Counted from the stretch's first letter, positions 25,413 to 61,369 are shown. The stretch: DNA of 64,000 nucleotides from Nitrospirota bacterium (GCA_029261215.1 JAJDBT010000118.1:9121-73120); one strand, 5' to 3'. Notes: generated by a model not told the origin, from the sequence alone. Made by a program: numbers and translations.

Positions 25413-25437
25413 GAGCCGGGGTCCTTTGTTTGCTGCT

Positions 25438-26418: not shown

Positions 26419-26436
26419 ATCATTTAAAGTATGATC

Positions 26437-29529: not shown

Positions 29530-29562
29530 TTAGACCTTTCTATCCAAAGAACCTTAAGAGCC

Positions 29563-30090: not shown

Positions 30091-30129
30091 CTTTTCTCCT
30101 TCGTTGTTTATCCGATAAAATAATTTAGC

Positions 30130-35700: not shown

Positions 35701-36146
35701 GATATCACACGAGTGGGCTGGGGGGAACCGGTTAGAGTGCTAGCGTTTTCATAAATTTGAATGGCATTTTGGGCTGTATTGGCCACATAAAGCGTGTCAT
35801 TGCTTCGATCCAAAAAGACCCCGGTCGGACCCGTGATCGCATTCGGGAACTGACGGTCAGGAAAGACATTTCCATCTGGTACGCGGGGAACGATTTTTGA
35901 CTGGGCCGTTTTTGAGTTGGAAGATAAAGGGTCAAAAGCAAGGAGCCGACCATCGCCCCCATTGGCCACATAGAGCGAGCCTCCAAAGGTAAAGGTCTCC
36001 TGAGCGGCTGTTTTCGGAGCAGGTCCTGCTGTTTCACCACAAGCAGAGAGAATAAAATAAAAGAGAATGAGCAAACAGAGAGGAAACCTCCGTTTGAACC
36101 CTTCGATGAGAACGTCTACTGTTTCAATCCTGCTTCTCAATATCAT
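32742..36146 (-). CDS. Giant beta-propeller-repeat lipoprotein (YVTN/NHL-like blades, about 18 repeats), unknown function
   Basis: Lipobox ILSAC is present. About 18 copies of a blade core occur, such as DTLYVAN..N.I.IY and DRLYVSN.... A linker motif (Y/F)ENAS(T/S)L...P.R.I.G recurs. Seven short Cys pairs sit in the loops. Confidence 0.8.
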   Translation of the reverse strand: MILRSRIETVDVLIEGFKRRFPLCLLILFYFILSACGETAGPAPKTAAQETFTFGGSLYVANGGDGRLLAFDPLSSNSKTAQSKIVPRVPDGNVFPDRQFPNAITGPTGVFLDRSNDTLYVANTAQNAIQIYENASTLTGSPQPTRVISGSKTLMDEPYAVAFDGVTERLFVANRGGNTITAFHSSCISAAPLDGDILPCTLLVGDQTQLDFPRALAIDPSKNLLYISNAGSDSILVYDNANALGASPASCINDFTSCNIPPTRIISPHEDLDKSVSKLELPFGIALDRVNDRLYVVNTGLNQPAVLIYEDASTLNGGVVPERVITGLNSGLTVPAGIAVDETRGRVIVVNNNSPNNVNSSTGNNVDSPSVVVFNEIDMVCPLLASPSSCELSPDSRIGGDVSPETGTTLSSPVGLAFDPTRDTAYIANTGANNIFIYVVEENTAPLKENFGAATTTLLNVPSGVFYDLALDRLYISNAGNGMTPSLYPITVYNHVSDESFNVSKAPDWTIGGSSFNMPRGVYIDKTRNLMLVADGSSVGSPAKYGLIAYNLNTSFSNGVTPVPFPINNADGPSGSETSKVDLQAPGALNRGTDGLSPGGPTAMTVDEARGEVYVADKNNNSVVVFKLPPPAGPWLKEREITGLKKPYGVFIDTQRDILYVTNNGVETGVSSDNTVYVYENASTKGDGGTACFAAPCLPDRIISTEGFADPQKKLKAPISPYVDLATNRLFLIKSASHVEGSVTYPEAVLTFQEASTLGDATSACLDRTGVCADVDLTKVKKLSGDKTRLAFWQDAGTTPLRRYTGAVFLSKHKNNDTLYVAQSAQKNCVSGCSGGALLVYGIEGRVPPSKIWSDGSGGFVSPEALALDPIKNVLYVANQGSNTLSILEKADKVDVTLDATTGKRDLNNLQLNRPAGLVIDSALDRLYVSNSESISCGTLPCNAVLVFNDASTLLDGQTPSETISDPDLISPRGLAVDGLRKRLYIASHGNNAVLVFSVEGAAARSLFLSGVQSGLDEPAGLALDSVRDILYVLNQGKTEVLVFENASSLSGNASPSRVITGRDGNGNNFMVKLSGIFVDAGKDILYVADRDANAVYIFPDASTATGQSPLKTLAGDKTGLQSPVAITVNTSSP

Positions 36147-46038: not shown

Positions 46039-47391
46039 CTAATACTCATAAAAGCGAACCTGATTTCGACCTTCGTGCTTGGCTTGATATAAGGCTTTGT
46101 CCGCGTATTGAATAAACTCATTGGGCGTGATCGCCCCTTTTGCAGTCCCTGGCAAGGTACATACCCCAAAACTACAAGTTACTTTGGCGTGATCCGGGAG
46201 AAGTTCAAGCTCCGACACCACTTTTCTTAAACGTTCCGCCGATGCGACAGCCTCCCCTTGCCCTGTTTCAGACATCAGAATCACAAACTCTTCACCCCCG
46301 AAGCGTGATAAGACGTCATAGGGCCTTAGAATCGATTCAAAATATTTTGACAATTCCTGAAGCACATGATCACCCATCACATGTCCATAGAAGTCGTTAA
46401 CCTGCTTAAACTTATCGATATCAAATAAAATGAGGGACAAGGGGCGATTTAAACGTAAGGCCCTTTCTATTTCAGAGCCAAGAACTTTATTTAAATATCG
46501 TCGATTATAAAGCCCGGTTAATGGGTCCCGAATCGAGAGATCCTTGATTTGCTCAAAAGCCTGTTGTTTCTGGATCGCAATCACAGCCTGGGTGGCCAGC
46601 ATCCTCAAACTATCCGTCAATGTCGGCGCGAAACGACTCGGTTTAAAATCATCACTGTATAAAATACCGACAGGCCCCTTGTCCGAGATCAATGGAATCG
46701 CAATAAGCGAACGAATCCCCTCCTTTAAAATGATGGGATTGTTGAATGTCGGAAAATCAACGAGATCTGGCACAAGAATGGGGTCTTTATTGGAAAGAAT
46801 ATGTTCGGTTAAACCCCCAGGCCGGACGGGATACACTGCATTTTGATAAAATTCAGAAGAAAGCCCCTTTGTCGCCACCAAAAAAAGTTTATTATTGTGC
46901 TTGTTGTAGACAGAAAGCGACCCGGCTGGCATGCCCGTAATCCGCATGCCGCCCTCAACAATCGCTTGAAAAATTTCATCAGGCGTTTCGGAACGGGAAA
47001 GCATGAGACTAATATCGAGCAAAACCTGGTTTTCCAGCAGCTTTTTCTTTATCCCCAGTTCCCGATCTTCGAGCTCCTGAATCACATCCCACAGCACATG
47101 GGCGACTTCACCGGTCGCTACATCAAATCGATTACCTGAAATTTGAACCAGTTGACTGCGAACCTCAGGATTGTCCGTTAAATCAAAAACAAGGTCGATC
47201 TCCATTTCTCCTAAAAAAGGAATCGGGTCTTCAAGGTATACGGGGAGATTGGCCTCTCTGGCCAGAGCAATGGCCGGGGCATCAGGGTTCAAATCGGCTA
47301 CGCCGACAACCTGAAACCAGTCAAACTGTAAAAGGCGGCTTAACACCGCCTTTCCACCATTTCCTGCCCCGATAATAAAGACCTGAACCAT
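46039..47391 (-). CDS. Diguanylate cyclase with an N-terminal Rossmann-like domain and a central GAF-like domain
   Basis: It has GxGxxG (FIIGAGNGG) and a GGDEF domain. The GGDEF domain has active site GGEEF and an I-site RPYD five residues upstream. The maximal ORF reaches TTG 47436; I prefer ATG 47391 by analogy with the kinase at 15150. Confidence 0.85.
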   Translation of the reverse strand: MVQVFIIGAGNGGKAVLSRLLQFDWFQVVGVADLNPDAPAIALAREANLPVYLEDPIPFLGEMEIDLVFDLTDNPEVRSQLVQISGNRFDVATGEVAHVLWDVIQELEDRELGIKKKLLENQVLLDISLMLSRSETPDEIFQAIVEGGMRITGMPAGSLSVYNKHNNKLFLVATKGLSSEFYQNAVYPVRPGGLTEHILSNKDPILVPDLVDFPTFNNPIILKEGIRSLIAIPLISDKGPVGILYSDDFKPSRFAPTLTDSLRMLATQAVIAIQKQQAFEQIKDLSIRDPLTGLYNRRYLNKVLGSEIERALRLNRPLSLILFDIDKFKQVNDFYGHVMGDHVLQELSKYFESILRPYDVLSRFGGEEFVILMSETGQGEAVASAERLRKVVSELELLPDHAKVTCSFGVCTLPGTAKGAITPNEFIQYADKALYQAKHEGRNQVRFYEY

Positions 47392-47459
47392 AAATTTTAG
47401 TGTAACGCCATCCGATGCCTTGTCAAGTACGCGCAAAGTATCTGAATCAGCACATTGTA

Positions 47460-47489
47460 TTGACCTTCGTGGGCTTCACTCGCTATACT
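47460..47489 (+). promoter_or_regulatory. Sigma70-like promoter for the O-methyltransferase-DUF420-PilZ operon (TTGACC-18 nt-TATACT)
   Basis: The hexamers lie at 47460-47465 and 47484-47489. A GAGGA Shine-Dalgarno sits 5 nt before ATG 47532. Confidence 0.45.
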
Positions 47490-47531
47490 CGCCCACAAAA
47501 ACTTGAACTGATAGAAACAAATGAGGATCAT

Positions 47532-48515
47532 ATGCCACGCGAAATATCAGCCCCTTCCCTCTTTCAACTCGGATATTACTGGGAAGCAAAAATTTTCCTG
47601 ACCTCGGTTAAACTGGATCTTTACACGCCTTTGGCGGATGGCCCCAAAACAGCGAAACAACTCGCAGACACGATTCAATCCGACCCGGACGCGCTCAGCC
47701 GCTTACTGGATGCACTGGTTTCAATTGGCCTGCTGCGGCGTGAAGGCGAAGCGTATGTCAATATTCCTGAGCTCGCGGAATTTCTGGTCAAAACAAGCCG
47801 GTTTTACATGGGCGAACTGATGTTGCTTCAGGATGCGGAGTGGGACCATTGGGGAAAACTCGAAGAAATTGTCAAAACAGGTCAGCCTGCCGTAAAAGAC
47901 AATATCTTTATGAATCATCCTGAACTCGGGGCAACGGTCTCAAGAGTGCTTCACCGCATGGCCAAAAGAGTTGCCCCCGCATTAGCGGAAAAAATCGACC
48001 TTTCGAGTTACAAGACTTTTATCGATGTCGGCGGCGGCGGCGGGGCTTTTTCTATCGCTTTTGCCCAGCGCTATCCTCATTTAAAAATCACCTTGTTTGA
48101 CCTTGCCCAAACACTCAAGGTGAGTAAAGAAAATATCGAACACGAACAATTGCATGATCGCATTGAACTGGTTGAGGGAAATTTTAACACCGGTCCACTT
48201 CCCGCCTCTTACGATGTGGTTTTCGCATCCGACATTCTCCACTATCAAACGGACGCGGAAAACGCGGCACTCATACAACGACTTTATCATGCGACACAAC
48301 CCGGCGGTGTCGTCATCATTAAAGACATGTTTATTGGAGATGATGACAGCGAGCCGGGATGGAATGCTGTTTTTTCGATCCATATGATGGTCTATTCAGA
48401 AAAAGGCCGCTGCTTTAAAGGGGAACGTATTCGGGAGTGGATGACAAAAGCAGGCTTTGATCATATCGTGGAAATGGAAAAAAATACCATTTTAGCTGGC
48501 ACAAAAGGGATCTAG
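47532..48515 (+). CDS. SAM-dependent O-methyltransferase, family 2 (winged-helix dimerisation domain + Methyltransf_2)
   Basis: The N-terminal dimerisation/wHTH segment reads LDLYTPLADGPKTAKQLA...LLDALVSIGLL. SAM motif FIDVGGGGGAF is present. The maximal ORF starts at 47415. Confidence 0.8.
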   Translation: MPREISAPSLFQLGYYWEAKIFLTSVKLDLYTPLADGPKTAKQLADTIQSDPDALSRLLDALVSIGLLRREGEAYVNIPELAEFLVKTSRFYMGELMLLQDAEWDHWGKLEEIVKTGQPAVKDNIFMNHPELGATVSRVLHRMAKRVAPALAEKIDLSSYKTFIDVGGGGGAFSIAFAQRYPHLKITLFDLAQTLKVSKENIEHEQLHDRIELVEGNFNTGPLPASYDVVFASDILHYQTDAENAALIQRLYHATQPGGVVIIKDMFIGDDDSEPGWNAVFSIHMMVYSEKGRCFKGERIREWMTKAGFDHIVEMEKNTILAGTKGI

Positions 48516-49294: not shown

Positions 49295-49636
49295 ATGCAG
49301 GAACAGAGAGAAAACCCACGAAGTTCTTTTCATTTAAGAACAGACGTATTGCTTAATGAAGGGAAGGAACACATCAGCCTTTTGAGAGCCAATATCGGCT
49401 TTGGCGGCATCGGAGGCTATACGCGGGATTTGGTCAAGGCAGGAAGCGATGCCCTGGTTCAAATTCATTTTGTCCAGCGTGAAGGCGGGGAAAGCATTGA
49501 ATCCGCCCAGGGACAAATCATCTGGCAAAAACAGGATGGCAACTTCACTGCGCTTGGCATTGGTTTTTCAGAACTAAAATCCGAGCGGCACCCGCAACTG
49601 ATCTCCTACCTGAGATACGCAGAACAATTCGACTAA
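49295..49636 (+). CDS. Stand-alone PilZ-domain protein (putative c-di-GMP receptor)
   Basis: 113 aa. An RxxxR motif (RENPR) lies at the N-terminus and a D/NxSxxG-like motif (NIGFGG) about 30 aa later. The third position of the second motif deviates from the consensus. Confidence 0.6.
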   Translation: MQEQRENPRSSFHLRTDVLLNEGKEHISLLRANIGFGGIGGYTRDLVKAGSDALVQIHFVQREGGESIESAQGQIIWQKQDGNFTALGIGFSELKSERHPQLISYLRYAEQFD

Positions 49637-49666: not shown

Positions 49667-50134
49667 TTAAGACACTTGCATATCCAAAACAGTAAAAAAG
49701 ATCACAAGCAGTCCCGCCAATAAAACCACCAAATTTAAAAGCATCGAAAAGCCATGAAACCGCCGAAAGCGCTTTGATTTTTCTGCTTCATCAGAGCAAT
49801 CCGTTGAGGCCCTGAGATCGTTCTTGAGCTGTCTCACTTTTGGCACAACAATAAATGCGGCATAAAATGTCGAGAGCATCATAAAACTTAATGTGATAAG
49901 CCGCGCCCTGTGCCATTCAAACACGACAGATGACATGGCCAATGTCCCCAAACTTAAAACACTGCACAGACATCCCACTTGATAGTATTTTGGAAATATT
50001 TTAGCCACAATTTCGCCCGCAGTTTCTTTGGGAAAGGCTTTAAAAATCGACGGTGCGGCAATCAATGAAAAAAACACCATGGACCCGACCCAAACCGAGA
50101 GAGACAGGAGATAGAGAAACTGCAGTAAAATCAT
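49667..50134 (-). CDS. DUF4149 (TMEM205-like) four-TM membrane protein
   Basis: The N-terminus reads LLSLSVWVGSMVFFSLIAAPSIFKAF...AGEIVAKIFPKYY, typical of DUF4149. It starts 15 nt downstream of the FG-GAP gene stop. Confidence 0.6.
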   Translation of the reverse strand: MILLQFLYLLSLSVWVGSMVFFSLIAAPSIFKAFPKETAGEIVAKIFPKYYQVGCLCSVLSLGTLAMSSVVFEWHRARLITLSFMMLSTFYAAFIVVPKVRQLKNDLRASTDCSDEAEKSKRFRRFHGFSMLLNLVVLLAGLLVIFFTVLDMQVS

Positions 50135-50149
50135 ACTATTATCACCTGA

Positions 50150-53100
50150 TCAAGGTCCTTCAAGTCGGCTAGAATTTGTTGGTTTCGTCAAAACGGGTTT
50201 ACCGGAAGGGATTCCATCGCAAGCGTTTCCAATACCGTCTCGATCATCATCTTCCTGTCCGAAATTTGCCACAAAAGGACAGTTATCCACATCATCGTTA
50301 AAGCCATCGCCGTCTCCATCCAAAATCGAGAGCTCACAGGCATCCCCTATGTCGTTTCCATTCACATCAACTTGATCCGGGTTTGCAATATTGGCACAAT
50401 TGTCTATTTGATCCGGAACCCCGTCCCCATCACTGTCTCCCGGTAGATCCGCATCCGGCCCCAGCATGCGCACCACATAGGTGCTGTTCGGATCAAGACG
50501 TACAGCATATTGGGCCCCAACTTCATTAGAAATACACTTAGGCCCCGGAGGACAAAACTCTTCCGCTCTTGAACCCAAAAATGAAATTTCAGCTTGTCCC
50601 ACCTTCGTACACGTTTCTCCCACCACCCGGCATGTCACTCCGACAGCCGTGACATTTCCCGGCATACCTGTATCGACATTTAAATGAGTATAAAACAGAC
50701 TGTTAAAAGCGGTAATATTCACCAGGGAATTGCCCGTGAGCGGTGTCACTGAGGGAGAAACCGCATTTCGTGTCCCTTTGAGGATGTTTAAACCAAAGGG
50801 CAGATCAAAAATAATAAAACGCCCACTATTTCCCGTTTGATTCAGCAAGGGATCCACGTCCAGTGCATCGTTCAAATACCGCACAACGCCGACCGGGTTT
50901 CCATCCAGATCACGAGGGTCAACAAGCACATCCTTGACCGAACTGCGTTGACTTAACAGAATCGAAAGGTTGTCAGAACCCGAGTTAAGCGCGATCAGGT
51001 CATTATGCCCGTCCTGATTCAAATCACTCATTAGCAACGCTTTTGGCGCACTGCCCACGGTAAAAGATTTTGAAGGGAGATCAAATCGGCCATCGCCTTT
51101 TCCTGCCACCACAGAAAGGGTGCCGCTTCCTTCATTCGCAATTACGATATCAAGGGTCCCGTCTTGCTCAAAATCAAGTACGAGCAGTGCGCGTGGCATC
51201 GTTCCGGGTGTCAGGGGACAATTTTCATTGATGGGGTCTGTCGCAGGGTTCGGGCCGGGGAAACAATCAACCTTGTCAAAACGATCATTCCCATCCCCTT
51301 TAAAAATAGACAAATCATCAGAACCCGCGTTAAGCACAACAATATCAAGAAGACCATCCGCGTTGAAGTCCCCAACCCCGATGTCGCTCGGATTGTCTCC
51401 CGCGACAAGTGCGGTATTGATTGATCCGTCCCCACTCCACAAAAGGGAGACAACTCCCGAATTGGTCGCCACCGCGAGATCCAGAATATTGTCATCATTA
51501 AAATCCCCTGTCGCAATCCCTGTCGGCGAACCCGCGACCGCACAAGGGGTCGGGCAGGGTGAGTTATTGACAGAGAATCCTCCTCTCCCGTCACCCACCA
51601 GGACCGAAAGGTTGTTTGAGCCCTCATTCGCAATCACAAGGTCAAGCCGCCCATCCCGGTTTAAATCAGCCACCTTGATATGCCCAGGCGCCGTACCCAG
51701 ACCCGCTGTGATGGGCGTAAGAGTCGAAAACGCGCCATTCCCTGTCCCCCACAAACGTGAAATAGAGTTTGATCCCCGGTTGACAACGACGAGATCCGTG
51801 AAACCATCCTGATTAAAATCTCCCGCAGCAATCGCCGCCGGATCGTTTTCAACACCAATTGAAGCGGGCGTCGCCGGAATAAACCCGCCATTCGCCTGAC
51901 CTAAAAAAATCTGCACCTGATCCGGCGCGTGCACAACGGCCACATCAGGATAAACATCCTCATTAAAAAAACCTGCCGTCATGGCCTTCACACCTGAACC
52001 TGTCGAAAGAGTACTGACCGCATCGACAATCGTCTGCGCAACCACCTCACCCGCCACAAGGCCCTTTTGTAAATCAAGACTCACGCCCGCCTGAACCGCC
52101 AGCTGAGACAACTCTGGTTCCGATGTCACATAAAATTGAGCGTCCGTCTGTGGGTTCAATCCGGTTTTGAGTTGATCATTATATGTATCGATGAACCCAT
52201 TTTTAACCACCTTGGTTAAAAATGAACCATTTGCAGGAATCGGCACCCCGGGTGAAACCGTCAAGGATTCGGATGTAAAACGACTTCGCTCTCCCAATAA
52301 TGAAAGCGCTGCACCCGAAACCGGATGATTGTGCAGATCACTCAGATTGCCTCTTACAGGCACATTCAAGGGAACATGGTTCAGCGCAATATCCACCTTG
52401 TGCACACTGTCCGGAAAAACACGGATAATTTGATTGCCAGAATCATCCGAACCGGCAGTCTTGAGCATGACCAGTCCGGGAGGAATGTTTCGGATTAAAA
52501 ACAGACCATTATCTGTTGTTTCAGTTAATGCAAAATCCAGAACCCCGGCGGCATTAAAATAGCTGATATTCCCCACAGGATTTCCGCTTGTCATCACATG
52601 ACCATTCTGATCGATCATCTGCGTCGTCAAAAGCTGTACTTCGTTGTTTCTGCCTCCCAGGCGTCGGTTAATCACGCGCCCCAGAATCGCCCCAGAGCCA
52701 TTTGTCGCACCAATGAATCCGTTTGAGACCAAGGTCAGATCGAGGTTAAGATCCTGGCCTCCGGTATTCACCGACTGATAGGTTGTCACATGTGTGCCGC
52801 CTGACTTTTCAAGGCGAATCAAAATCGTATTATTTGCGAGCAAAGGGGCGATTGCTTCCGAATCTGTTCCGGCTGCAATCGCATATGTCCCTGTCGCAGC
52901 ATCTGAATTAGCGAAGATCTCTGAAAGCCCCATCACACGCATTGAGACACCGCCCACAGGGGTCAACCCATCTTCCTCTAAAACAGTGCCTGACAGGCCA
53001 ACGGTATACCATGTCGGAGGCAATGCCGAGACGGAAGCGGGGTCTACCCGAAGCGCCGTTTCCATCCGCATGTTCAGGAGGGTCAGGCTATTCGGAAACA

Positions 53101-54382
53101 CGGAGGCAAGCGCATTACCCGTTGACTTCACCCTTAAGCCCGAGCCGTCGGTCGCATCAACCACTGCGTAAGCCTTTAAATAAACATCACCCGGAGGCAG
53201 GTTCAGAATCAGAAAGATCCCTTCCGTCGAGGTTTGCACCTGACATCCCGAAATACTCGCATTGTTGCAGACCGGAAAATCGCTGCCCGTGGGAAAATAA
53301 AAGGTCTCGCCAATGGGATTTCCTTCAGCATCCGTTGCGATGACCACAGCCCCGTCTTTTCTGCCTACATTTCCTTCAATCCCGACGGCCTCGGAAATAT
53401 TACCCAATAACATGCCCCGGCCGGAAATCAAGGAAGCTCCAGCAGCCAGAACCAACTGCTGGACATCTTGATTGGCAACACTCGAAAAATCGATTGTGAT
53501 CTCCGGAGTTACGGCGTTCGCTGTTAAGTCGGCCAGGTCGGTAAAAACAGTCTGATAGGTATCTATGTGTCCTGCCGCAGCGACCTTGGAGAGAAATACA
53601 CTTTCGGAACCCAGCCCTGAAGCACTGAAAGCACCGCGTCCCGTCGTCGTAATCGAACCCGCCAGTCCGGGAAAACTGATTTGGCTTGGGCCAACACCGG
53701 TTTCTTTATCCCTTTCCCGCACCACCCCGGCAATATTAGAGGTCGGGAGGGCGACAGGAAAAACAGACATATCGAGCAAGGAGACACTTCCCGCATAAAT
53801 GTTCACCCGTCCGTTTCCTCTGCCGCCTTGCACCGCCTTGACAAAGTGCTGTCCGGGCGGCACATTCAAAGCGGTGAAACTCCCTGAAACTGCGGTTCCC
53901 GTGGTATTAATAAATTCAGGGATGCCGTTAATCCCGTTAAACAAAATAGATGCGACCAATTCGCCATCCGCATTGGTCACTCCGCCTTTGACGGAACCAT
54001 CTATGTTCCTAATAATGCGTCCGGCTTTATCTGTTCCGCCGATTGAAACACTGGGGAGCGGGCGACCGAGGCGGTCCACAACAACCCCACTCAACACTCC
54101 CAGATCTGCCGATTGCTCAGCAGTGCCAGGAACAGCGGTGATCAGGTTTTTAACATCCGCACCGGAAACAATTCGAAGATTACTTAATGTGCCCAGTATT
54201 TCGCTGGTGCCTGTTTTAAAATTGAATGTATAGGTTGGAACCAAAGGAACTTGAAAGCGGCCACCCGTTCGCTCTCCGACGGGGAAGGGGTCTGAGTTGC
54301 ATCCCTGAAAAATAAAGAGACCCCCCAACAGCGTTAAGATAAGTCCTTTAAAAAAAAGAGGGGTTTTCAAGTACTTCAACAT
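50150..54382 (-). CDS. Giant mosaic lipoprotein: CarboxypepD_reg-like beta-sandwich modules + seven FG-GAP/VCBS repeats + C-terminal thrombospondin type-3 (Ca-binding) repeats
   Basis: Lipobox FQGC is present. At least four modules end in the motif N(V/L/I)PPG...(L/V)K. Seven GDFN.DG..D(L/I)V..N.GS..LS(V/I) repeats span aa ~798-1146 (nt 50945-51991). TSP3 motifs DSDGDGVPDQIDNC..NPDQ.D and DGDGDGFNDDVDNCP span nt 50213-50440. Confidence 0.85.
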   Translation of the reverse strand: MLKYLKTPLFFKGLILTLLGGLFIFQGCNSDPFPVGERTGGRFQVPLVPTYTFNFKTGTSEILGTLSNLRIVSGADVKNLITAVPGTAEQSADLGVLSGVVVDRLGRPLPSVSIGGTDKAGRIIRNIDGSVKGGVTNADGELVASILFNGINGIPEFINTTGTAVSGSFTALNVPPGQHFVKAVQGGRGNGRVNIYAGSVSLLDMSVFPVALPTSNIAGVVRERDKETGVGPSQISFPGLAGSITTTGRGAFSASGLGSESVFLSKVAAAGHIDTYQTVFTDLADLTANAVTPEITIDFSSVANQDVQQLVLAAGASLISGRGMLLGNISEAVGIEGNVGRKDGAVVIATDAEGNPIGETFYFPTGSDFPVCNNASISGCQVQTSTEGIFLILNLPPGDVYLKAYAVVDATDGSGLRVKSTGNALASVFPNSLTLLNMRMETALRVDPASVSALPPTWYTVGLSGTVLEEDGLTPVGGVSMRVMGLSEIFANSDAATGTYAIAAGTDSEAIAPLLANNTILIRLEKSGGTHVTTYQSVNTGGQDLNLDLTLVSNGFIGATNGSGAILGRVINRRLGGRNNEVQLLTTQMIDQNGHVMTSGNPVGNISYFNAAGVLDFALTETTDNGLFLIRNIPPGLVMLKTAGSDDSGNQIIRVFPDSVHKVDIALNHVPLNVPVRGNLSDLHNHPVSGAALSLLGERSRFTSESLTVSPGVPIPANGSFLTKVVKNGFIDTYNDQLKTGLNPQTDAQFYVTSEPELSQLAVQAGVSLDLQKGLVAGEVVAQTIVDAVSTLSTGSGVKAMTAGFFNEDVYPDVAVVHAPDQVQIFLGQANGGFIPATPASIGVENDPAAIAAGDFNQDGFTDLVVVNRGSNSISRLWGTGNGAFSTLTPITAGLGTAPGHIKVADLNRDGRLDLVIANEGSNNLSVLVGDGRGGFSVNNSPCPTPCAVAGSPTGIATGDFNDDNILDLAVATNSGVVSLLWSGDGSINTALVAGDNPSDIGVGDFNADGLLDIVVLNAGSDDLSIFKGDGNDRFDKVDCFPGPNPATDPINENCPLTPGTMPRALLVLDFEQDGTLDIVIANEGSGTLSVVAGKGDGRFDLPSKSFTVGSAPKALLMSDLNQDGHNDLIALNSGSDNLSILLSQRSSVKDVLVDPRDLDGNPVGVVRYLNDALDVDPLLNQTGNSGRFIIFDLPFGLNILKGTRNAVSPSVTPLTGNSLVNITAFNSLFYTHLNVDTGMPGNVTAVGVTCRVVGETCTKVGQAEISFLGSRAEEFCPPGPKCISNEVGAQYAVRLDPNSTYVVRMLGPDADLPGDSDGDGVPDQIDNCANIANPDQVDVNGNDIGDACELSILDGDGDGFNDDVDNCPFVANFGQEDDDRDGIGNACDGIPSGKPVLTKPTNSSRLEGP

Positions 54383-54494
54383 TTTTCACCTAAGAAATAA
54401 AATCTTACGATATTACCAACACGATTTTACAACACTGCTTTATCGAAATGCCAGTTTATCGGATAATCAGCCTCTTTATATCTCTATACGGCCC

Positions 54495-57400
54495 CTAAAA
54501 ACTGTAACTCAGTTCCAAATAAATACGGTTGCTGTCTTTAAAAAAGCCGATAAAATCAAACTGCCCAACCTCTTCCCCGCGGTCACCCACAAAAATATCA
54601 CTGCCAAAAATAGCTTTCACATTGTCGCTCAGCCTCGTCTCAAGCGCTGGCCGGAAGAGAAAATCCGCTTCGTTAATAAAATAGAGGGACAGGATTCTAA
54701 GTACGAGTTCTTCATTCATGAATGTTTTTCTCATAAAATGAGCGGCAACGGTATCAATGCGATCCTGTAATATTGTGGCGTTCCAGCCCGGAATGTACTG
54801 TTGAATAAACTGCAGGGACATATCCGCACCCAAAAGGGAAAAATCAAGACCGACGGCATATTTCATATAATCGCGCTGTAGTTCACCCAGCAGCGGGGAT
54901 TGATCTTCACTCAGATCAGCGCTGGCGGCAGCAGCCGCATCGATATCCAGTAATGTCCCAAAGAGTTTTCCAAAAACATAGGCATATTCGGCATTCAGCA
55001 CAACACGGCCAAAACTTTTTGAAAGAGTCGTGCCTACGGTGGTAATACGGTGCATCCTTGGCTCAAATTGGACTTCTGGCGGGTCAGAAAATGGATTTAG
55101 GCCCGCGCCGAGGATCGACCGGAAACTCGCAGGAAAATCATCCCATTGATAAAAAACAGTCATTCCGACTTCCCAGTCTTTTATCGTCTGAACGAGCCGT
55201 CCGGCAATTTCTGTATTTTGAAAAGCATTCACATTCAAGTTCAAGGAATCATCCAGAAAAGCTTCTGGGGCAATAAACCCCGGCAGAATCTGAAACTGCT
55301 CAAATTCTGAACCGGACGGGGCCGGTTTATGCGGGACGGCTTCGGTAATCCAAATGAGCTCCAATCGCGCATCCCCTGGGAAAAAGTCTGCCTTCAGCAT
55401 CATCAAGGGAATAAAGCGATCTTCAACTTCTCGTAAAATAAATTCACCAAAATCAAAAGGGTTAATCTCGTCCGTCACCCGCGCACCAGGGACAACCCCC
55501 CAGCGCACGATCTGCTTTCCGATACGAAGATCCATATTTTTAAAATGTGCATCAATATAAAATTCTCTCAAATCAACACTATGCCGATTCTGCTCCACCG
55601 CACGTGAATTTTCGACATCCACGCCAGCGACTTCTTCTCTTGTCGGCGATTGCGGAAGCGTCGTCAGGATTGTATTGTCAAAGCGCCTTGGACTAATCGT
55701 GTCCACATCGACAAAATCATAAATCGCATCATAAAATGTGCGCCCACGGCCGGTAATTTGATATCTTGGAGAAAATGCATACCGACCGTTTAAACGAAGT
55801 AATGTCAGCGCTTTTGTAAAAGTGACCGGACTGTTAATCCGGTAAGCCACTTCATGTTTTAGGGTACCGTCCCATTGGAAATCCTGGAGTAACAAAGGAG
55901 AGTCCTCGGTTGCAAGGTCGGCCTCATCACCCCAATTCAGCCATTTTTCGAATATAGTTTGGTCTGAACTCCCTTTCCCAAAATGAAACCGGAGCGCCAT
56001 TCGGGCTTCAAAACCATCCAGATTTATTCTCAAAATCCGAGGCCGTGTCCCCTCACGCACTTGATCATTGTCACAGGTAATGGTGGTCAGGGTTTGCCCT
56101 CTTGTCTGGTTGTCTCCTAATTGAAAACAGGGATTGACCGATACGCCAGGCTGGCCCGCCGTAGAACCCCGAAAGCCGGATGGAAATTCCCGCTCGACCC
56201 TGAGTTTTGTCACCGTTCCCCAAAGATAGTTGACGCCTAAACCCACTGAAAACCAGGGACGGATAAAAACTTCCCCTCCCAGTCCGGCCCGCGTTGTAAA
56301 ACTCCGACCTCTTGCTTCAAAAGACCCCAGAGAAACAAAAGGCCCGCCGGTTGGATTTTCTTCTGCGCGAATCAGAGCATCCGCTGTTAAATTAACAAAT
56401 GAGCCGCCCAATAGTCCGAGATCCATATAAATACGACCGATTTCAGGGTCGTTCAAGAGGGCATACCGCCATGAAAGGAAAACTTGATTGATGCTCAGGT
56501 TATATCGGGCGCTTCTTGGCAGCAGGCCAGATCGTGTGGGTGAGAATTGAAAAGGGATCAAATCAGTTCTGACGGTGTTGCTTTGCCATTCCGAAAGGCT
56601 CAATACCAGACCATTTCGCTCATTGATGCTCCACTCTGCTTCTATTCCGAGTGTTTCACTGCCTTTAATTTCTTCCATCGCCAAATTTCTTACTTCTGAT
56701 ACAAAACCTGGATTTGAAGGGAGAATATGATTTGGGTCTTGAGCAATGACTGTTTTTGGGTCACTCAACACCTGATTTAGATTTTCCAGAGAAGGTTTGT
56801 AATACCCCGTAGTGAGGCTGACGCTCAGTTGCGTCGCGCCCGACTTCCATTTGGGATAAAGAAATTCCAGATCTGTCGCCGCCGTCAATCCAAAGGTCAC
56901 GATGTCCTGATCATAGGCGCCCAAAGATTGAACTTGGCCACTATTAATATCGACTAAATCAATGTCCGAAGCCACGGGAAGGTTTGAAAGGTTTTTGTTT
57001 CGCGCAAAATTGGCAAAAAAAGTCACTCCAGGCTGAAGGTCATAAGAAAAACCTGCCGTTGCGCTGTACAGCTGATTCTGACGCTTGCGGCGAATTCCTC
57101 GGCTTAGGGCAAATGAATCGGCATTTAAATAATCGGACACGGCATAACTTGCGCCCAGTGTCAATGTTAAGTCGGGACCCAGGTCACGGATGTAATTTCC
57201 AGAGAGGGTTTGCGTGATTCTTTCCTGATCGTTCGCGAGCACATGACTCAGCCCATAGGTATATGATCCCTGAACCCGGCCTAAATCAAAGCCAAACAGA
57301 GAAAGATTCTGCGCCAGAATGCCACTGCCCGTTGCCGTTTTGGTACTAAAAATCGGGTTACTATAGATCTCGATATCCTGATAACTCAGACGGAGTGTAA

Positions 57401-59231
57401 CCGAGGAGGGGAAAACAGCCTGGCGTGATACTTCGGCCGTGTAGCCATTGATCCGAATAAACTTCCCTTTACTTAGGGTATCGCCATACATCGTCCCCAT
57501 TCTAAAATTGTAACCCAATACCACACTATAGGATGAAATAAACTGCGCATATAAAAGACTTGCGCCAGTATTGACAAAATAAAGCTGAGAATGGTGAAGC
57601 AGGCGCGTATTGAAATTAATCTGAAAAGGAATTTTGAGCAGTTCCTTTTTTTTCAAATAATAGGTTAATGCAAGATTGGATTCAGAGCTTACTTCACTGA
57701 TCGGCACCTGACTCCGCGTACTATTGCTATCAAACGAGACGGCCATGTCGGAATAGCTGACATTGAACTTTTTTTCATATAAATCAACGCGACCCTGTGC
57801 AATTTTTTTCATCCTTGCTTCTCTGTCTTTAGACAAGTCGAGTACCGCGTGATACGCATCCAATGCGTTTTGAATCTCATCTTTTTTTTCATACAGAATG
57901 CCAAGCCGCATATGTGCCCCGGCTTCCAATGGCCTTACAGTCACCGCATCTTTGTAGATTAAAATGGCCTTATCAAGGTCGTTCATCTTTTCATAAATTT
58001 CACCCAGCAGGAAATAACTGAGATAATGATTCCGATCAATTTCAATGGCCGCTTTGAGCTTTTGCTCCGATTCCTTCAAATCGCCTTCTTCCAGGGCGAT
58101 CTGGCCCAGATGGTAGTGGACAAGCACCTGTTTCGGTAAATACGTAAGCACAACAAGAAATGCTGCCCGCGCACCTTCAAAATCTTTCCTGGAAAGTAAT
58201 CGGCCTCCTTCTCTCAAAAGTGATTGAACCAGAATTCCGATTTCCGGGGTTTCCCCTATTTGGGATAGCTTTTGCCTCGCAATCATCACTTCTTGTTGCT
58301 TTGGATCGCTAACTTCCTGTAACAACCCCTGATATTCGCTAATCGCCTTGTCAATTTCACCTTTATTTTCATAGGTTTGTCCTAGAAATAATCGTGCTGA
58401 AAATAAATCGGGCTTTTGCTCAAGCGCTTTTCTTAATCTATCAACCGCTTCATCCAATTGTCCTTTCTGAATCGCAATGATCCCCAGACTAAAAAGCGCC
58501 TTTGGATTTTCGGGGTCGAGAATTAATCCTTTTTGAAACAGATCTGTTGCCTCTGCAATCAAACCTTGTTTTAAGTGCGCTGTCCCATTTTGGAAGAAAG
58601 CTTCTGCATGTTTTTTCAGAAGAGCAATTTGGGACTCTGCCTGCTTTTTTTCAGGGCCCTCACCTTTAGACGCAACGGCAGCACGATATCGCTCAATGGC
58701 TTTAAATATTTCCCCCTGACTTTGGAACAATAAGCCCAAATAATAGTGGCCCCCCGGATAGTCAGGGTTGACATCAATCGCACGTTCAAAGGCAGCGATG
58801 GCTTTTTTATTTTCTTTCGTTGCGGCATAAGCCTGCCCGAGTAAAAGGTGTCCTGCTAATAAACTCTCGTCTATTTCAACAGCCTGCCTAAGCACCTCTA
58901 TTGCCCGATCAATCTCACCTTTTCGAGTATAGATAATCCCAAGCAGAAGATAGGAGGGTGTATGCCTCGGGTTTACCAACAAAACGTCCTGAAAAGCAGA
59001 GATAGCCTGGCTCAATTTTCCCTCACCCATCAAGGCCCTTCCTTCCTCAAAGATGGCCCGCTCAGTTAGGTTAGGGCTTGTTTGGGCCTGTACAGGAGAG
59101 GGAATAAAGAAGAATAATCGTCCGACTAAAAAGAGAATACCCACGAAAGCAATGAACGCTTTCTTTGGGACAAGATCCTTAAAGATCGGTTTTTGAGGTC
59201 GCACCTTCACTAAAAAATCAAGTCTCCACAA
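54495..59231 (-). CDS. Giant outer-membrane protein: signal peptide + ~415-aa TPR array + up to three tandem beta-barrel-like modules (the C-terminal one DUF1302-like)
   Basis: TPR repeats span aa 55-470. After that, the pattern is amphipathic beta strands. Segments end ...GLTAATDLEF (aa 790), ...FEARMALRFHF (aa 1084) and ...RIYLELSYSF (aa 1578). The block LREFYIDAHFKNMDLRIGKQIVRWG resembles DUF1302. The TTG start is uncertain. Confidence 0.8.
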   Translation of the reverse strand: MWRLDFLVKVRPQKPIFKDLVPKKAFIAFVGILFLVGRLFFFIPSPVQAQTSPNLTERAIFEEGRALMGEGKLSQAISAFQDVLLVNPRHTPSYLLLGIIYTRKGEIDRAIEVLRQAVEIDESLLAGHLLLGQAYAATKENKKAIAAFERAIDVNPDYPGGHYYLGLLFQSQGEIFKAIERYRAAVASKGEGPEKKQAESQIALLKKHAEAFFQNGTAHLKQGLIAEATDLFQKGLILDPENPKALFSLGIIAIQKGQLDEAVDRLRKALEQKPDLFSARLFLGQTYENKGEIDKAISEYQGLLQEVSDPKQQEVMIARQKLSQIGETPEIGILVQSLLREGGRLLSRKDFEGARAAFLVVLTYLPKQVLVHYHLGQIALEEGDLKESEQKLKAAIEIDRNHYLSYFLLGEIYEKMNDLDKAILIYKDAVTVRPLEAGAHMRLGILYEKKDEIQNALDAYHAVLDLSKDREARMKKIAQGRVDLYEKKFNVSYSDMAVSFDSNSTRSQVPISEVSSESNLALTYYLKKKELLKIPFQINFNTRLLHHSQLYFVNTGASLLYAQFISSYSVVLGYNFRMGTMYGDTLSKGKFIRINGYTAEVSRQAVFPSSVTLRLSYQDIEIYSNPIFSTKTATGSGILAQNLSLFGFDLGRVQGSYTYGLSHVLANDQERITQTLSGNYIRDLGPDLTLTLGASYAVSDYLNADSFALSRGIRRKRQNQLYSATAGFSYDLQPGVTFFANFARNKNLSNLPVASDIDLVDINSGQVQSLGAYDQDIVTFGLTAATDLEFLYPKWKSGATQLSVSLTTGYYKPSLENLNQVLSDPKTVIAQDPNHILPSNPGFVSEVRNLAMEEIKGSETLGIEAEWSINERNGLVLSLSEWQSNTVRTDLIPFQFSPTRSGLLPRSARYNLSINQVFLSWRYALLNDPEIGRIYMDLGLLGGSFVNLTADALIRAEENPTGGPFVSLGSFEARGRSFTTRAGLGGEVFIRPWFSVGLGVNYLWGTVTKLRVEREFPSGFRGSTAGQPGVSVNPCFQLGDNQTRGQTLTTITCDNDQVREGTRPRILRINLDGFEARMALRFHFGKGSSDQTIFEKWLNWGDEADLATEDSPLLLQDFQWDGTLKHEVAYRINSPVTFTKALTLLRLNGRYAFSPRYQITGRGRTFYDAIYDFVDVDTISPRRFDNTILTTLPQSPTREEVAGVDVENSRAVEQNRHSVDLREFYIDAHFKNMDLRIGKQIVRWGVVPGARVTDEINPFDFGEFILREVEDRFIPLMMLKADFFPGDARLELIWITEAVPHKPAPSGSEFEQFQILPGFIAPEAFLDDSLNLNVNAFQNTEIAGRLVQTIKDWEVGMTVFYQWDDFPASFRSILGAGLNPFSDPPEVQFEPRMHRITTVGTTLSKSFGRVVLNAEYAYVFGKLFGTLLDIDAAAAASADLSEDQSPLLGELQRDYMKYAVGLDFSLLGADMSLQFIQQYIPGWNATILQDRIDTVAAHFMRKTFMNEELVLRILSLYFINEADFLFRPALETRLSDNVKAIFGSDIFVGDRGEEVGQFDFIGFFKDSNRIYLELSYSF

Positions 59232-59271
59232 AAAAATAGGTCATGAAGCAGTTCATGCTCGATAAACAGAT

Positions 59272-59303
59272 AAAAAAAAGGGGAAGACTTTTAAGTCTCC
59301 CCC
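59272..59303 (-). terminator. Rho-independent terminator after the 287-aa secreted-protein gene
   Basis: The minus strand reads GGGGGAGAC-TTAAAA-GTCTTCCCC followed by TTTTTTTT. This is a 9-bp stem with one G-U pair, starting 38 nt after the stop codon. Confidence 0.85.
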
Positions 59304-59340
59304 TTTAAAATAGCTTAATTTCGCTTTTTTTACGATTTTC

Positions 59341-60204
59341 TTACTGCGGAATTCTTTGCAGATCAGGATCTTGACCTGCGGACTGCCCTGGACCTGTCGG
59401 GGTACTTGCCCCAAAGGTACTGTCAAAGGCAAGAGCGGTCGTGTTGTTGTAATCAAACGACCCTTGCAATGGACCGAGCGCAAAACCGCCTTCCACAATA
59501 GACTGCTCCCAATTAATGGTGCCACCACCGTTGGCGACCGACGAACTCTGCTGACCGACAGAACTGGCTGCAATAGTGACCACTTGCAGTTCATCCCCAT
59601 TCAAGCCTTCAGTAAAGGTTGTCTGCGAGACTGCCTGATCAAAAGAAATGGTGCTGTCCGTCGCACTGTAGGTAAAGGTGTTTGAAAAATCGATCAAAAC
59701 ACCGGCTCTTCCCACAGGCGATGTGCTGGGGGGCACAGTCGTGGCGATAGGCGTCCCTTCCGACAGAAAATCCTGAGTCGGAACGGGCAAACTGAACACA
59801 AAATCCCCAGAGTCGTTACACCCTACCGTATTACACGATGTGGCAGTGGGAATCGTCATACCCTGTACAACGGGATTAAACGCTTTATCCCCTAAATCCG
59901 CATCGCTGTTAAGACGAATGACACCAAACATACTGGCCGTCAATGCGCCCGCTGTCGTTCCGCCTGCATTTGAATTCACACAAGTAAAACAGGGACCTGC
60001 TGAAGCATCTGTATTGCTTACAGCATCCATCAAACTCACGGTTGGATCAAAACCCAACTCGGTACTCCCCATTGTATTTGTTTCATTCGTACAGACAATA
60101 TTGCCAGTACCACCGCCTGTACAAACCTGAGCGGAAGCTTCAGTTCCCGGCAACAATGCATAGGACCCAACAACTAACGCTAATAAAAAGACTTTTTTTA
60201 ACAT
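59341..60204 (-). CDS. Secreted Thr/Ser/Gly-rich protein with three Cys pairs, unknown function
   Basis: The signal peptide reads MLKKVFLLALVVGSYALLPGTEASA. The mature part is almost free of Lys and Arg. Cys pairs are CTGGGTGNIVC, CFTC and CNTVGC. A strong Shine-Dalgarno (GGAGGTGG) is present. I recognise no family. Confidence 0.8.
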   Translation of the reverse strand: MLKKVFLLALVVGSYALLPGTEASAQVCTGGGTGNIVCTNETNTMGSTELGFDPTVSLMDAVSNTDASAGPCFTCVNSNAGGTTAGALTASMFGVIRLNSDADLGDKAFNPVVQGMTIPTATSCNTVGCNDSGDFVFSLPVPTQDFLSEGTPIATTVPPSTSPVGRAGVLIDFSNTFTYSATDSTISFDQAVSQTTFTEGLNGDELQVVTIAASSVGQQSSSVANGGGTINWEQSIVEGGFALGPLQGSFDYNNTTALAFDSTFGASTPTGPGQSAGQDPDLQRIPQ

Positions 60205-60277
60205 AAGCTCTCCACCTCCCTCTACTTCACTTCTTTTAAAGAATGGAATGAAGACTTCTCTTAAAAGAAGATCATTG

Positions 60278-60314
60278 TCATATGACTCTATTTAGAAAAA
60301 CTACAGTCATATGA
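60278..60314. promoter_or_regulatory. Pair of TCATATGA palindromes forming a perfect 10-bp inverted repeat (TCATATGACT / AGTCATATGA); candidate operator
   Basis: The arms lie at 60278-60287 and 60305-60314. They sit immediately downstream of the proximal -10 element of the secreted-protein gene, so they overlap the predicted transcription start and early leader. Confidence 0.45.
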
Positions 60315-60320
60315 GCTTGA

Positions 60321-60349
60321 ATACTAGTGAAATACCATCTCCCTGTCAA
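60321..60349 (-). promoter_or_regulatory. Strong sigma70-like promoter of the 287-aa gene (TTGACA-17 nt-TAGTAT on the minus strand)
   Basis: On the plus strand tgtcaa lies at 60344-60349 and atacta at 60321-60326. The -35 is consensus and the spacing is optimal. Confidence 0.6.
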
Positions 60350-60367
60350 CCCCCTCTTTTGAGGGGG
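60350..60367. other. GC-rich hairpin CCCCCTC-(4 nt)-GAGGGGG abutting the -35 element
   Basis: 7-bp perfect stem with no flanking U tract on either strand. It may mark the end of the LolA-like transcript or insulate the promoter. Confidence 0.4.
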
Positions 60368-60458
60368 AAGAACGGTTTCGATATGCCGTTTATGGGGATC
60401 AACGAAATAAGCAGAACATCCTTACGAATACGCTAACTTGCTTAACATAATCGAAAAG

Positions 60459-60488
60459 ATATTACTGCTTCAGCTTGATTAATGTCAA
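60459..60488 (-). promoter_or_regulatory. Second, distal sigma70-like promoter (TTGACA-18 nt-TAATAT on the minus strand)
   Basis: On the plus strand tgtcaa lies at 60483-60488 and atatta at 60459-60464. It would give a ~250-nt leader that contains the hairpin and the palindromes. Confidence 0.35.
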
Positions 60489-60547
60489 CAGTACTTTAAT
60501 GTATGATGAAAGACAATGCCTCGCGATACAGATTTTTTCAGCTTGTC

Positions 60548-61369
60548 TTAGCGGTTGGGTCCTCGTAATAACATCCGATCTGAAAATCGCGAATCTTCCA
60601 AACCTGTATCATTCTTTACATCGGTAATTTCGAAAATCGTCTTGTGCTTGGATTGAACATTTGTAATCTCTGATCGTTTCCAAACCAAGACATCCCCCAC
60701 TTTTTGCCAGGAGGTCAATTGCAGTTTTAAAGGCTTCATTGTTCGATCATAGAATTCTACTTTTCGGGCCACCCAGTCTTTTCTTGAAATGAAATAGCGT
60801 TTTTTTCCATAAGGGCTGTCTTGTTCCTTTGGAATACTGTCCACGACATAACACGGTTCATTCAAGCCTCTGCAGACACCCGGCTTATCGAATACCATTT
60901 GATGTTCGTCTTCATCCAGGCGGCGGGCCCCCATATCTGCAAAAGTCAGGTCTGAGCCCATAAAAGAATCATTTTGATCACGAGTGGTCATACGCCTCAC
61001 ACTTCTAAGACTGGGAAGGTATAACCATAGGTCATCCGGTTTCCCTTCAATGGAATAGTCCCAAATTAAAAACCCCGTCCCTTTTTGATCTGGCGGATGC
61101 TCTGTGTAAAATACGCTTTTACTATCCAGCCCCTCTTTTCCGGCAAAGTGCTTATGGAACCGCAAGGTGACAATTTTGCGTTCATTGCCCAGCGCATCAA
61201 TTAAAATCATTGTGACAATCGAAGTTTGATCCATCGTCATATTTGCATGGCTGACCTTTTCCATGACTTCCGCCGCAGTCAACTTCTCTTCTTGGGCCCA
61301 AGCTCGGTCAAATCCTGGGGTGAGCATCAGAATCAAAAAGAAGAGTGCCAATACCGTTTTTTTATTCAT
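60548..61369 (-). CDS. Outer-membrane lipoprotein-sorting (LolA-like / DUF1329-clan) periplasmic protein
   Basis: A signal peptide is present. The family-typical block DDLWLYLPSLRSVRRM......DSFMGSDLTFADM is present. 273 aa. Confidence 0.72.
   Translation of the reverse strand: MNKKTVLALFFLILMLTPGFDRAWAQEEKLTAAEVMEKVSHANMTMDQTSIVTMILIDALGNERKIVTLRFHKHFAGKEGLDSKSVFYTEHPPDQKGTGFLIWDYSIEGKPDDLWLYLPSLRSVRRMTTRDQNDSFMGSDLTFADMGARRLDEDEHQMVFDKPGVCRGLNEPCYVVDSIPKEQDSPYGKKRYFISRKDWVARKVEFYDRTMKPLKLQLTSWQKVGDVLVWKRSEITNVQSKHKTIFEITDVKNDTGLEDSRFSDRMLLRGPNR

Follow-up and report, generated by a model that had tools for sequence, protein, structure and literature searches.

A TPR three-barrel fusion protein and its giant lipoprotein partner in Nitrospirota: parts of a candidate secretion or surface-assembly system

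What is the function of a group of genes whose products all appear to belong in or beyond a membrane, and which fits no pathway that can be named? The question was raised by an initial annotation of a 64,000-nucleotide (nt) stretch of DNA from a Nitrospirota bacterium (GCA_029261215.1, JAJDBT010000118.1:9121-73120; the window), which pointed to five consecutive minus-strand genes for a LolA-like protein, a secreted protein of 287 amino acids (aa) (S287), a 1578-aa TPR multi-barrel outer-membrane protein, a 1410-aa lipoprotein (Lip) and a small DUF4149 membrane protein. All five open reading frames (ORFs) were confirmed on reading (Table 1), as was every domain call by profile searches against Pfam, and glycosyltransferase, ATPase, secretin, usher and autotransporter domains were indeed lacking from the five products in the Pfam scan. 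It was also found, in agreement with that annotation, that no characterised pathway accounts for the locus. Comparison with related loci showed that the fixed core consists of the 1578-aa protein and Lip, and that all five together do not form a conserved unit. With good support, the locus can be regarded as one half of a machine derived from the LolA-like/DUF1302/MMPL family, namely its outer-membrane and periplasmic part; what this machine may carry, and by which route, is considered below.

The fused barrel protein and its lipoprotein

The barrel part of the 1578-aa protein (aa 480-1578) was searched exhaustively with HMMER against 1.8 billion representatives, by which three modules, A, B and C, were resolved behind the periplasmic TPR domain; a word-index search with the same part gave 7 matches only and missed relatives that were found by the exhaustive search and a genome scan. 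The cutoff of the Pfam model TPR_Slam (PF24575) is passed with 46.3 bits vs 35.2, a match that is weak as evidence of membership since TPR models cross-match. No significant Pfam family was found for aa 480-1066, and DUF1302 (PF06980) matches aa 1142-1439 with 48-53 bits (cutoff 23.2). Profile searches with the three modules gave no significant match to a PDB sequence.

In the HMMER search, module A (aa ~480-797) was matched by full-length relatives only; in stand-alone TPR proteins with a terminal SF, the last ~300 aa share 23-28% identity with it. When members of its family were scanned singly against Pfam, Porin_4 was matched by 6 of 14, BBP2_2 by 4 and SlipAM/DUF560 by 2, the best SlipAM (PF04575) score being 30.3 bits against a cutoff of 22 for one gammaproteobacterial homologue, with 19 bits for another. 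These sequence matches suggest distant kinship at most between module A and the Slam barrel family. Module B (aa ~798-1084) is without a Pfam family and matches stand-alone proteins of 300-440 aa, which carry signal peptides and have HF or YF at the C-terminus, as is classic for barrels of the outer membrane; two of these homologues give weak OMP_b-brl matches. Inside the fusion, nine orthologues all keep the sequence RFHFG at the junction of B and C. For module C (aa ~1114-1578), the matches are stand-alone DUF1302 proteins of 430-540 aa with identities up to 48%, and these relatives also carry signal peptides. For DUF1302, no solved structure was available as of 2026 (PMC13499233).

Judged by homology, a TPR domain and three barrels, which elsewhere have genes of their own, are fused in the 1578-aa protein. 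Its reading as a multi-barrel protein is drawn from the stand-alone relatives and the retained beta-signal and not from the AlphaFold2 (AF2) model, which is too weak for a strand count; on the same ground, at least two non-overlapping barrel domains can be recognised in one chain. The idea of a multi-barrel protein, and the description of its parts as fused and combined, which had been put forward from the window by itself, were therefore accurate. Multi-barrel outer-membrane proteins such as GfcD/YjbH were predicted before (Solan et al., PNAS 2021, PMC8346858), and the present protein resembles them in having several barrels per chain, each related to single-barrel proteins; unlike that set, it joins three unrelated barrel families behind a TPR domain. 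In that paper, most of the architectures that comprise three barrels or more are built of 8-stranded units, and no DUF1302, TPR or Nitrospirota architecture is mentioned in the main text.

The start codon of the 1578-aa gene is uncertain (59231 vs 59030). One public assembly starts at an ATG 67 codons downstream, which gives a protein of 1511 aa and loses the signal peptide; signal-peptide-like N-termini are present in all orthologues, and the true start may plausibly be a GTG near 59210.

The second member of the core, Lip, has a lipobox that ends at Cys28, and in Pfam it gives six FG-GAP_3 matches, TSP_3 repeats and a sub-threshold N-terminal match to CarboxypepD_reg. The lipobox and the motif that follows the cysteine, C-N-S-D/E-P-F-P-x-G, are kept across loci in which the barrels are fused and loci in which they are not. 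The Lip gene stands directly after the DUF1302 barrel in 33 unfused loci and in 11/11 fused loci of sufficient length, and several such paralogous pairs are possible per genome. Since the two genes are often 4 base pairs (bp) apart or overlap, a fixed complex of barrel and Lip is suggested, or else a Lip that is the dedicated substrate of the barrel. It is well supported that Lip is an obligate partner of the barrel genes, paired with them 1:1.

Strict pairing of a barrel with a lipoprotein is what SusCD-like pairs typically show. A gate for the uptake of hydrophobic or polymeric substrates may be considered, in which DUF1302 would be the channel, Lip a surface lid as in SusC/SusD and the LolA-like protein the periplasmic acceptor. 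Besides the pairing, such a gate would be in line with the need of P. putida for DUF1302 and DUF1329 genes in growth on Tween 20 and fatty esters (10.1101/2020.07.04.188060), and with the resemblance of the DUF1302 fold to Occ and AlgE channels (PMC13499233). It is improbable, however, for a Nitrospirota host with no catabolic genes in the locus; there is no TonB box or plug domain, and the TPR arm, the three barrels and S287 are left without explanation.

Related loci and kinship with AmeABCD-type systems

In total, 103 related loci were read (numbered with the prefix L), the modules of the window being mapped onto their ORFs; the locus of the window is L014. Three layouts were seen. Type I comprises 28 loci from Nitrospirota, Gammaproteobacteria and a few Alpha- and Deltaproteobacteria, with the order O-methyltransferase, LolA-like, DUF1302, MMPL pump and barrel B, to which an FG-GAP propeller or TPR with barrel A (TPR-A) is added in some. 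The LolA-like, C, MMPL, B and TPR-A genes belong together, because one gammaproteobacterial operon carries them all. Type II comprises 33 loci, all of Nitrospirota type including Candidatus (Ca.) Manganitrophus, with up to three per genome; here, TPR-A, DUF1302 and a lipoprotein of 1260-1480 aa that is 25-30% identical to Lip are preceded by barrel B and by between one and three small secreted proteins (u217/u232, u354, u557). In type III, TPR-A, B and C are fused as in the window. Its 12 loci come from about 11 genomes, all of them marine or hydrothermal Nitrospirota metagenome-assembled genomes (MAGs), and these genomes also hold type II paralogues. That the three barrels act as one unit is well supported, since they are fused here and encoded in one operon in Gammaproteobacteria.

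The locus had at first been called a candidate undescribed one. It turned out to be a fused derivative of gene sets that are widespread in Nitrospirota and related to AmeABCD-type systems (PMC6394551), and multi-barrel proteins as such had been predicted, as noted above. A search for literature on these genes in Nitrospirota, Ca. Manganitrophus included, found none. On Ca. Manganitrophaceae chromosomes (OY970371.1, CP114561.1; L025, L031, L032, L082, L083, L088), DUF1302-family loci were observed at three places each, and in these relatives of manganese oxidisers one or two of the three places hold full TPR-A/DUF1302/giant-lipoprotein sets. On the GAC4 chromosome, the L088 set and, less severely, the L031 set are broken into several ORFs, either by pseudogenisation or by assembly errors.

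The genes around the core of type III vary in their presence. The S287 gene precedes the fused gene in seven loci, sometimes as two tandem copies. The LolA-like gene was found in four (the window, L003, L015 and L020), or about half of those with enough upstream sequence, and is accessory; DUF4149, which occurs in two loci only (the window and L006), is weakly linked and probably outside the system. The five-gene unit proposed in the initial annotation was therefore not upheld by synteny. The same annotation had held that a lack of neighbourhood conservation would speak against its proposal, and on this point the core pair was found to be conserved in 11/11 loci and the set of five was not. 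A purely coincidental adjacency of five genes with no joint function would accommodate the variable DUF4149 and LolA-like genes, as well as one S287 homologue that stands alone among housekeeping genes (L101). This explanation is scarcely credible, however: it is refuted for the core by the conservation of the pair in all related loci, though it may hold for DUF4149. Furthermore, the fused gene comes next in 10/11 cases where an S287 homologue has downstream sequence, and the same component types recur in the 33 unfused loci.

AmeABCD-type systems consist of a DUF1302 barrel, a DUF1329/LolA-superfamily protein, a COG4447 propeller and a COG1033 HAE3-RND pump, examples being AmeABCD of Castellaniella, PP_0765/0766 with PP_2018/2019 of P. 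putida and Sama_1588-1591 of Shewanella. Like these, the present locus encodes a DUF1302 barrel, a LolA-superfamily periplasmic protein and a beta-propeller protein together, and its unfused relatives in Nitrospirota and Gammaproteobacteria have an MMPL pump in the same operon. Unlike these, its barrel is fused to two more barrels and a TPR arm, its LolA-like protein belongs to PF17131 with a partial PF07044 match only, a separately transcribed secreted protein is added, and there is no pump in the locus. The sole propeller of the locus is of the FG-GAP and not the BNR/Ycf48 type and lies within a 1410-aa lipoprotein with calcium-binding repeats; Lip gave no match to BNR or PSII_BNR and is not homologous to the COG4447 propeller. 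Of the four defining parts, the locus has two, the DUF1302 barrel and the LolA-superfamily partner; as it lacks the pump and a BNR-type propeller, it is a relative of AmeABCD systems and not a member.

In the LolA-like protein, a partial stretch matches PF07044 (DUF1329) with 45.8 bits (cutoff 23.1), which marks a sister family and not a full-length DUF1329 protein. It is 67-73% identical to the copies of L003, L015 and L020, and 43-53% identical to those of MMPL-type operons. The likeness to proteobacterial DUF1302/DUF1329 pairs that had been pointed out at the start is thus real homology, the unfused relatives being found in LolA-like/DUF1302/MMPL operons. The nearest solved structure is LolA3 of P. 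gingivalis (9TP6, E 2e-34), a paralogue whose groove is hydrophobic and which is not a partner of the housekeeping LolB (PMC13103446). In this respect the protein resembles dedicated LolA paralogues, such as LolA3 and those of F. johnsoniae; unlike LolA3, its gene is tied to DUF1302-type barrels and not to LolCDE or LolB, neither of which was found in the 64-kb window.

Some further features of type I operons were observed. A CrtF-like O-methyltransferase (Dimerisation plus Methyltransf_2) heads the operon in 18/28 loci of two phyla (e.g., L007 3125-4198), which hints at a methylated hydrophobic cargo. The O-methyltransferase of the window was considered as an orthologue and rejected, being 27-31% identical vs 45-98% within the true set. 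As in some other Nitrospirota operons of this type, a 606-aa FG-GAP propeller protein follows barrel B in L007 (10997-12817), at the place where the BNR propeller stands in proteobacterial AmeABCD-type clusters; no homology between it and the propeller of Lip was detected by BLAST.

The secreted protein and possible routes of transport

S287 has no match in Pfam, NCBIfam or PDB. Its family has 29 members, and every one with a named source is from Nitrospirota. The mature protein is acidic, with 1.5% lysine plus arginine (K+R), 48% S/T/N/G/Q and three Cys pairs. The same K/R-poor and S/T/N/G-rich composition was found in the u217/u232, u354 and u557 proteins of unfused loci, which also have signal peptides, and a motif GS..(F/L)GFDP about 20 residues past the signal peptide is common to S287, u217/u232 and u354. 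It was considered that S287 might be a diverged form of u217/u354/u557, and this was not upheld: hhalign gave a probability of 93% for S287-u354 alone, and over the N-terminal 54 columns only. The likeness of these two is treated as a common N-terminal motif, homology not being proven.

The S287 gene had been described as insulated, and this is borne out by its promoter and terminator, both of which are conserved. In six relatives, TTGAC of the promoter is invariant and the -10 box is conserved in the alignment. The hairpin that abuts the -35 box is found only in relatives with a LolA-like gene upstream (the window, L003, L015 and L020), being absent from L001 and L016, and is probably the terminator of that gene. 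The terminator after S287 keeps its position, with different stem sequences, in L001, L003, L015, L016 and L023, and equally strong terminators lie in type II loci between the last small secreted-protein gene and the TPR gene. As only ~50-70 nt separate the S287 terminator from the next start codon, and the promoter scan found no promoter there, the machinery genes are probably expressed by read-through. A layout in which the major subunit stands ahead of its assembly genes is known from fimbrial operons. By analogy, the promoter and terminator of S287 would be what is expected of an abundant subunit gene ahead of its machinery, and the protein is a candidate for an abundant cargo or subunit.

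Two features of the S287 leader were also noted. An inverted repeat (TCATATGAC...GTCATATGA; window 60275-60316, minus strand) lies just downstream of the -10 box and looks operator-like, a reading that was discarded since the repeat is not conserved among relatives. The 256-nt leader is more stably folded than shuffled versions of it (z -4.0); neither a c-di-GMP riboswitch nor another known RNA was found in the leaders.

Among described systems, the locus would appear by analogy to work most like Slam, or type XI secretion. It has an N-terminal periplasmic TPR domain followed by a barrel of ~300 aa and no ATPase, and its barrel gene is adjoined by one gene for a lipoprotein of the signal peptidase II (SPII) type and one for a secreted protein of the signal peptidase I (SPI) type; to this may be added the TPR_Slam score and the one module-A homologue above the SlipAM cutoff. 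In type XI secretion, lipidated and soluble cargo are encoded next door (PMC8406197). A pump-independent, Slam-like route in two steps, by which Lip and S287 would be placed at the cell surface, is tentatively favoured, its chances being put at somewhat short of even. The reasons are that no pump or ATPase is encoded nearby, that the secreted proteins are cargo-like in composition and have a common N-terminal motif, that the gene order is subunit, terminator and machinery, and that a TPR arm and barrel have an SPII gene and an SPI gene as neighbours.

According to this scheme, S287 would be exported by Sec and Lip by Sec plus lipidation, after which a dedicated LolA-like chaperone would shield the acyl chains of Lip. 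Cargo would be taken up by the TPR arm, and the tri-barrel platform would pass Lip and S287 to the cell surface or anchor them there. Transport would thus run outwards, with Lip and S287 as the putative cargo, both of them presumably exposed. At the surface, the calcium-binding TSP3 repeats and the FG-GAP propeller of Lip may form an adhesive or structural layer. Transcription of S287 from its own strong promoter, with read-through curbed by the terminator, would provide many subunits per translocon.

Several observations weigh against this scheme. The module A of the window itself is not matched by SlipAM, or DUF560, and by Porin_4 only at E 0.03, two extra barrels are attached, and the candidate cargo lacks the 8-stranded C-terminal TbpBBD barrel; no TbpB-type domain was found in Lip or S287 with Pfam. 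The AF2 model of S287 is confident only in a C-terminal sheet of five long strands and showed neither a fold match in PDB nor an 8-stranded TbpBBD-like barrel. For all its likeness to Slam, the locus thus fails the DUF560 and cargo-domain tests, and it is from Nitrospirota, unlike the described Slam systems, which are from Proteobacteria. The AF2 model of aa 480-1578 (15 sequences) has a mean predicted local distance difference test (pLDDT) score of 47, with module C unmodelled and beta hairpins in modules A and B only (pLDDT 60-85 in A); Foldseek found generic outer-membrane barrels at TM <= 0.26, which is read merely as "outer-membrane barrel-like". Two fused loci (L004, L005) clearly lack S287, and about half of the fused loci, like all 33 unfused ones, are without the LolA-like gene. 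In L101 (7544-8395), an S287 homologue of 52% identity stands alone between genes for glutamate dehydrogenase and a pyridoxal phosphate (PLP) enzyme, and within 10 kb of it there is no barrel gene; a gene for a BNR/Ycf48-like propeller lies 4.4 kb upstream (1193-3136). Finally, the LolA-like and DUF1302 ancestry points to MMPL-driven transport of hydrophobic molecules and not of proteins.

This last point leads to the main rival, an AmeABCD-like exporter that would carry a lipid or another hydrophobic compound across the envelope and of which the locus would encode the outer-membrane end. Its MMPL/HAE3 pump would be encoded at another place and would hand the substrate to the LolA-like carrier, which would dock on the TPR arm, with exit through the DUF1302 barrel; the Lip propeller would take the role of the AmeC/BNR propeller and S287 would be accessory. 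Such an exporter would be consistent with the type I operons of 28 loci and with the closeness of the window's LolA-like protein to the pump-operon copies. In two alphaproteobacterial MAGs (L093 6299-9613, L094 5422-8655), a single ORF encodes an MMPL/RND pump with a C-terminal LolA_like domain (PF17131, E ~1e-51), directly followed by a DUF1302-like barrel gene, an arrangement that is a natural fusion linking pump, carrier and barrel. In five genomes (L007, L028, L030, L040 and L052), moreover, a type I pump operon lies directly upstream of a type II barrel/Lip set, which also counts against a pump-independent route. AmeABCD carries out efflux of hydrophobic compounds (PMC6394551), DUF1329 is predicted to contact both barrel and pump (PMC10866462), and cofit DUF1302/DUF1329/BNR/RND genes can be split over two loci (10.1101/072470). 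On the other hand, MMPL genes are present in 0/12 fused and 4/33 unfused loci, and no RND/MMPL pump was found in the window or in the ~7 kb read past its right-hand end. The separately transcribed K/R-poor secreted proteins and the 1:1 pairing with a lipoprotein of >1300 aa are not explained by such an exporter, nor is Lip homologous to the propeller it would replace. It is hence regarded as possible but doubtful.

Returning to the Slam-like route, its fullest form would be that the fused protein and its unfused relatives make up a previously unrecognised outer-membrane protein-secretion or surface-assembly system of Nitrospirota, with a three-barrel translocon made up of a Slam-like TPR barrel and the barrels of a LolA-like/DUF1302 lipid exporter, which exports K/R-poor proteins with the GS..GFDP motif and displays a giant calcium-binding lipoprotein. 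This proposal is rather unlikely and is put forward as a candidate.

Neighbouring genes and biological meaning

The features of the locus and its closest neighbours are collected in Table 1. The five genes are flanked by GlnD on one side and by PilZ, DUF420, O-methyltransferase and GAF-GGDEF genes on the other; past the right-hand end of the window, the remainder of GlnD is followed by an Mrp antiporter operon. Elsewhere, the window contains genes of housekeeping and envelope functions (BamA, Skp, LpxB, KdtA and others).

Table 1. Positions of genes, protein domains and transcription signals in the window
Feature	Position (nt)	Strand	Basis or remark
GAF-GGDEF gene	46039-47436	-	2.2 kb off, three genes between
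O-methyltransferase gene of the window	47415-48515	+	
PilZ gene	49295-49636	+	directly adjoins the five-gene stretch
DUF4149 membrane protein gene	49667-50134	-	PF13664, E 2e-22
Lip, 1410-aa lipoprotein gene	50150-54382	-	ORF and Pfam
TSP3 calcium-binding repeats of Lip	50213-50449	-	Pfam
FG-GAP propeller of Lip	50843-52015	-	Pfam
Fused TPR-barrel gene, 1578 aa	54495-59231	-	ORF and Pfam
Barrel module C, aa 1085-1578, DUF1302-type, ends ..SYSF	54498-55979	-	PF06980, E 4e-14
Barrel module B, aa 798-1084, internal beta-signal ALRFHF	55980-56840	-	stand-alone homologues
Barrel module A, aa 480-797, porin-like	56841-57794	-	homology to stand-alone TPR proteins
Periplasmic TPR domain, aa ~50-470	57822-59084	-	TPR_2, E 2e-47; preceded by signal peptide ...SPVQA/Q
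Intrinsic terminator, 13-bp stem, T-run	59277-59306	-	35 nt past the S287 stop
S287 gene, 287-aa secreted protein	59341-60204	-	signal peptide (ASA/Q)
Sigma-70-type promoter of the S287 gene, TTGACA-17-TAGTAT	60321-60349	-	promoter scan
Hairpin CCCCCTC-AAAA-GAGGGGG abutting the -35 box	60350-60367	-	read from sequence
LolA-like gene, 273 aa, SPI signal AWA/Q	60548-61369	-	PF17131, E 3e-46; partial PF07044

The initial annotation had placed a GGDEF cyclase and a PilZ receptor immediately next to the locus and suggested control by c-di-GMP; the PilZ gene does adjoin it, and the GGDEF gene does not. The TPR-plus-barrel layout is also that of PgaA, BcsC, PelB and AlgK-AlgE, and the fold of DUF1302 is reported to resemble AlgE (PMC13499233). 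Together with this layout, the neighbours could indicate that an exopolysaccharide is exported in the synthase-dependent manner of PgaA/BcsC/PelB and that c-di-GMP controls the process; a GGDEF gene is near one other locus only, directly upstream in the fused locus L005. Unlike the PgaA/BcsC/PelB exporters, however, the locus is without a synthase, a glycosyltransferase or a conserved c-di-GMP receptor, and no match was found at the level of protein families, the BcsC model giving 44 bits vs a cutoff of 858. No glycosyltransferase or synthase was seen in or near the related loci, PilZ is unique to the window, the two GGDEF proteins are only 31% identical and, as stated, no c-di-GMP riboswitch was found. 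This explanation, already weak, is therefore very improbable; the suggested echo of polysaccharide exporters found no backing past the layout, and c-di-GMP control likewise found none.

An envelope-biogenesis block at 17494-32520 (BamA, Skp, LpxB, Kdo transferase, an MsbA-like ABC exporter and a heptosyltransferase) confirms that the organism is a diderm with lipopolysaccharide. The genome appears rich in giant propeller proteins, as the window holds two very large ones besides that of Lip: a 1134-aa protein with NHL repeats (32742-36146, minus strand), whose gene adjoins BamA, and a 936-aa protein with twelve DUF5122 repeats (40739-43549, plus strand).

With regard to its wider meaning, the locus represents an unstudied branch of the DUF1302/LolA-like/RND envelope-transport systems, which are themselves poorly understood. 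DUF1302 and DUF1329 proteins are widespread, occurring also in Pseudomonas aeruginosa, and a decade of mutant phenotypes has been reported for them with no mechanism. The locus supplies an argument from natural fusion (Rosetta-stone) for joint action of a DUF1302 barrel with a TPR arm and two further barrels, and the MMPL::LolA_like fusions tie the carrier to the pump by the same logic. A Nitrospirota example with three unrelated barrel families is thereby added to the short list of predicted multi-barrel proteins. If a new secretion or assembly system is indeed present, the fusion would be the first direct clue to DUF1302 barrels in multi-barrel complexes. A change from exporting lipids to displaying proteins is a possibility to which the locus points. 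Its candidate cargo proteins stand out clearly, and heterologous expression, the approach taken for Slam, would allow a test. Paralogues of the unfused kind abound in Nitrospirota, Ca. Manganitrophus among them, and these bacteria, environmentally important and mostly uncultured, may rely on them for their cell surface.

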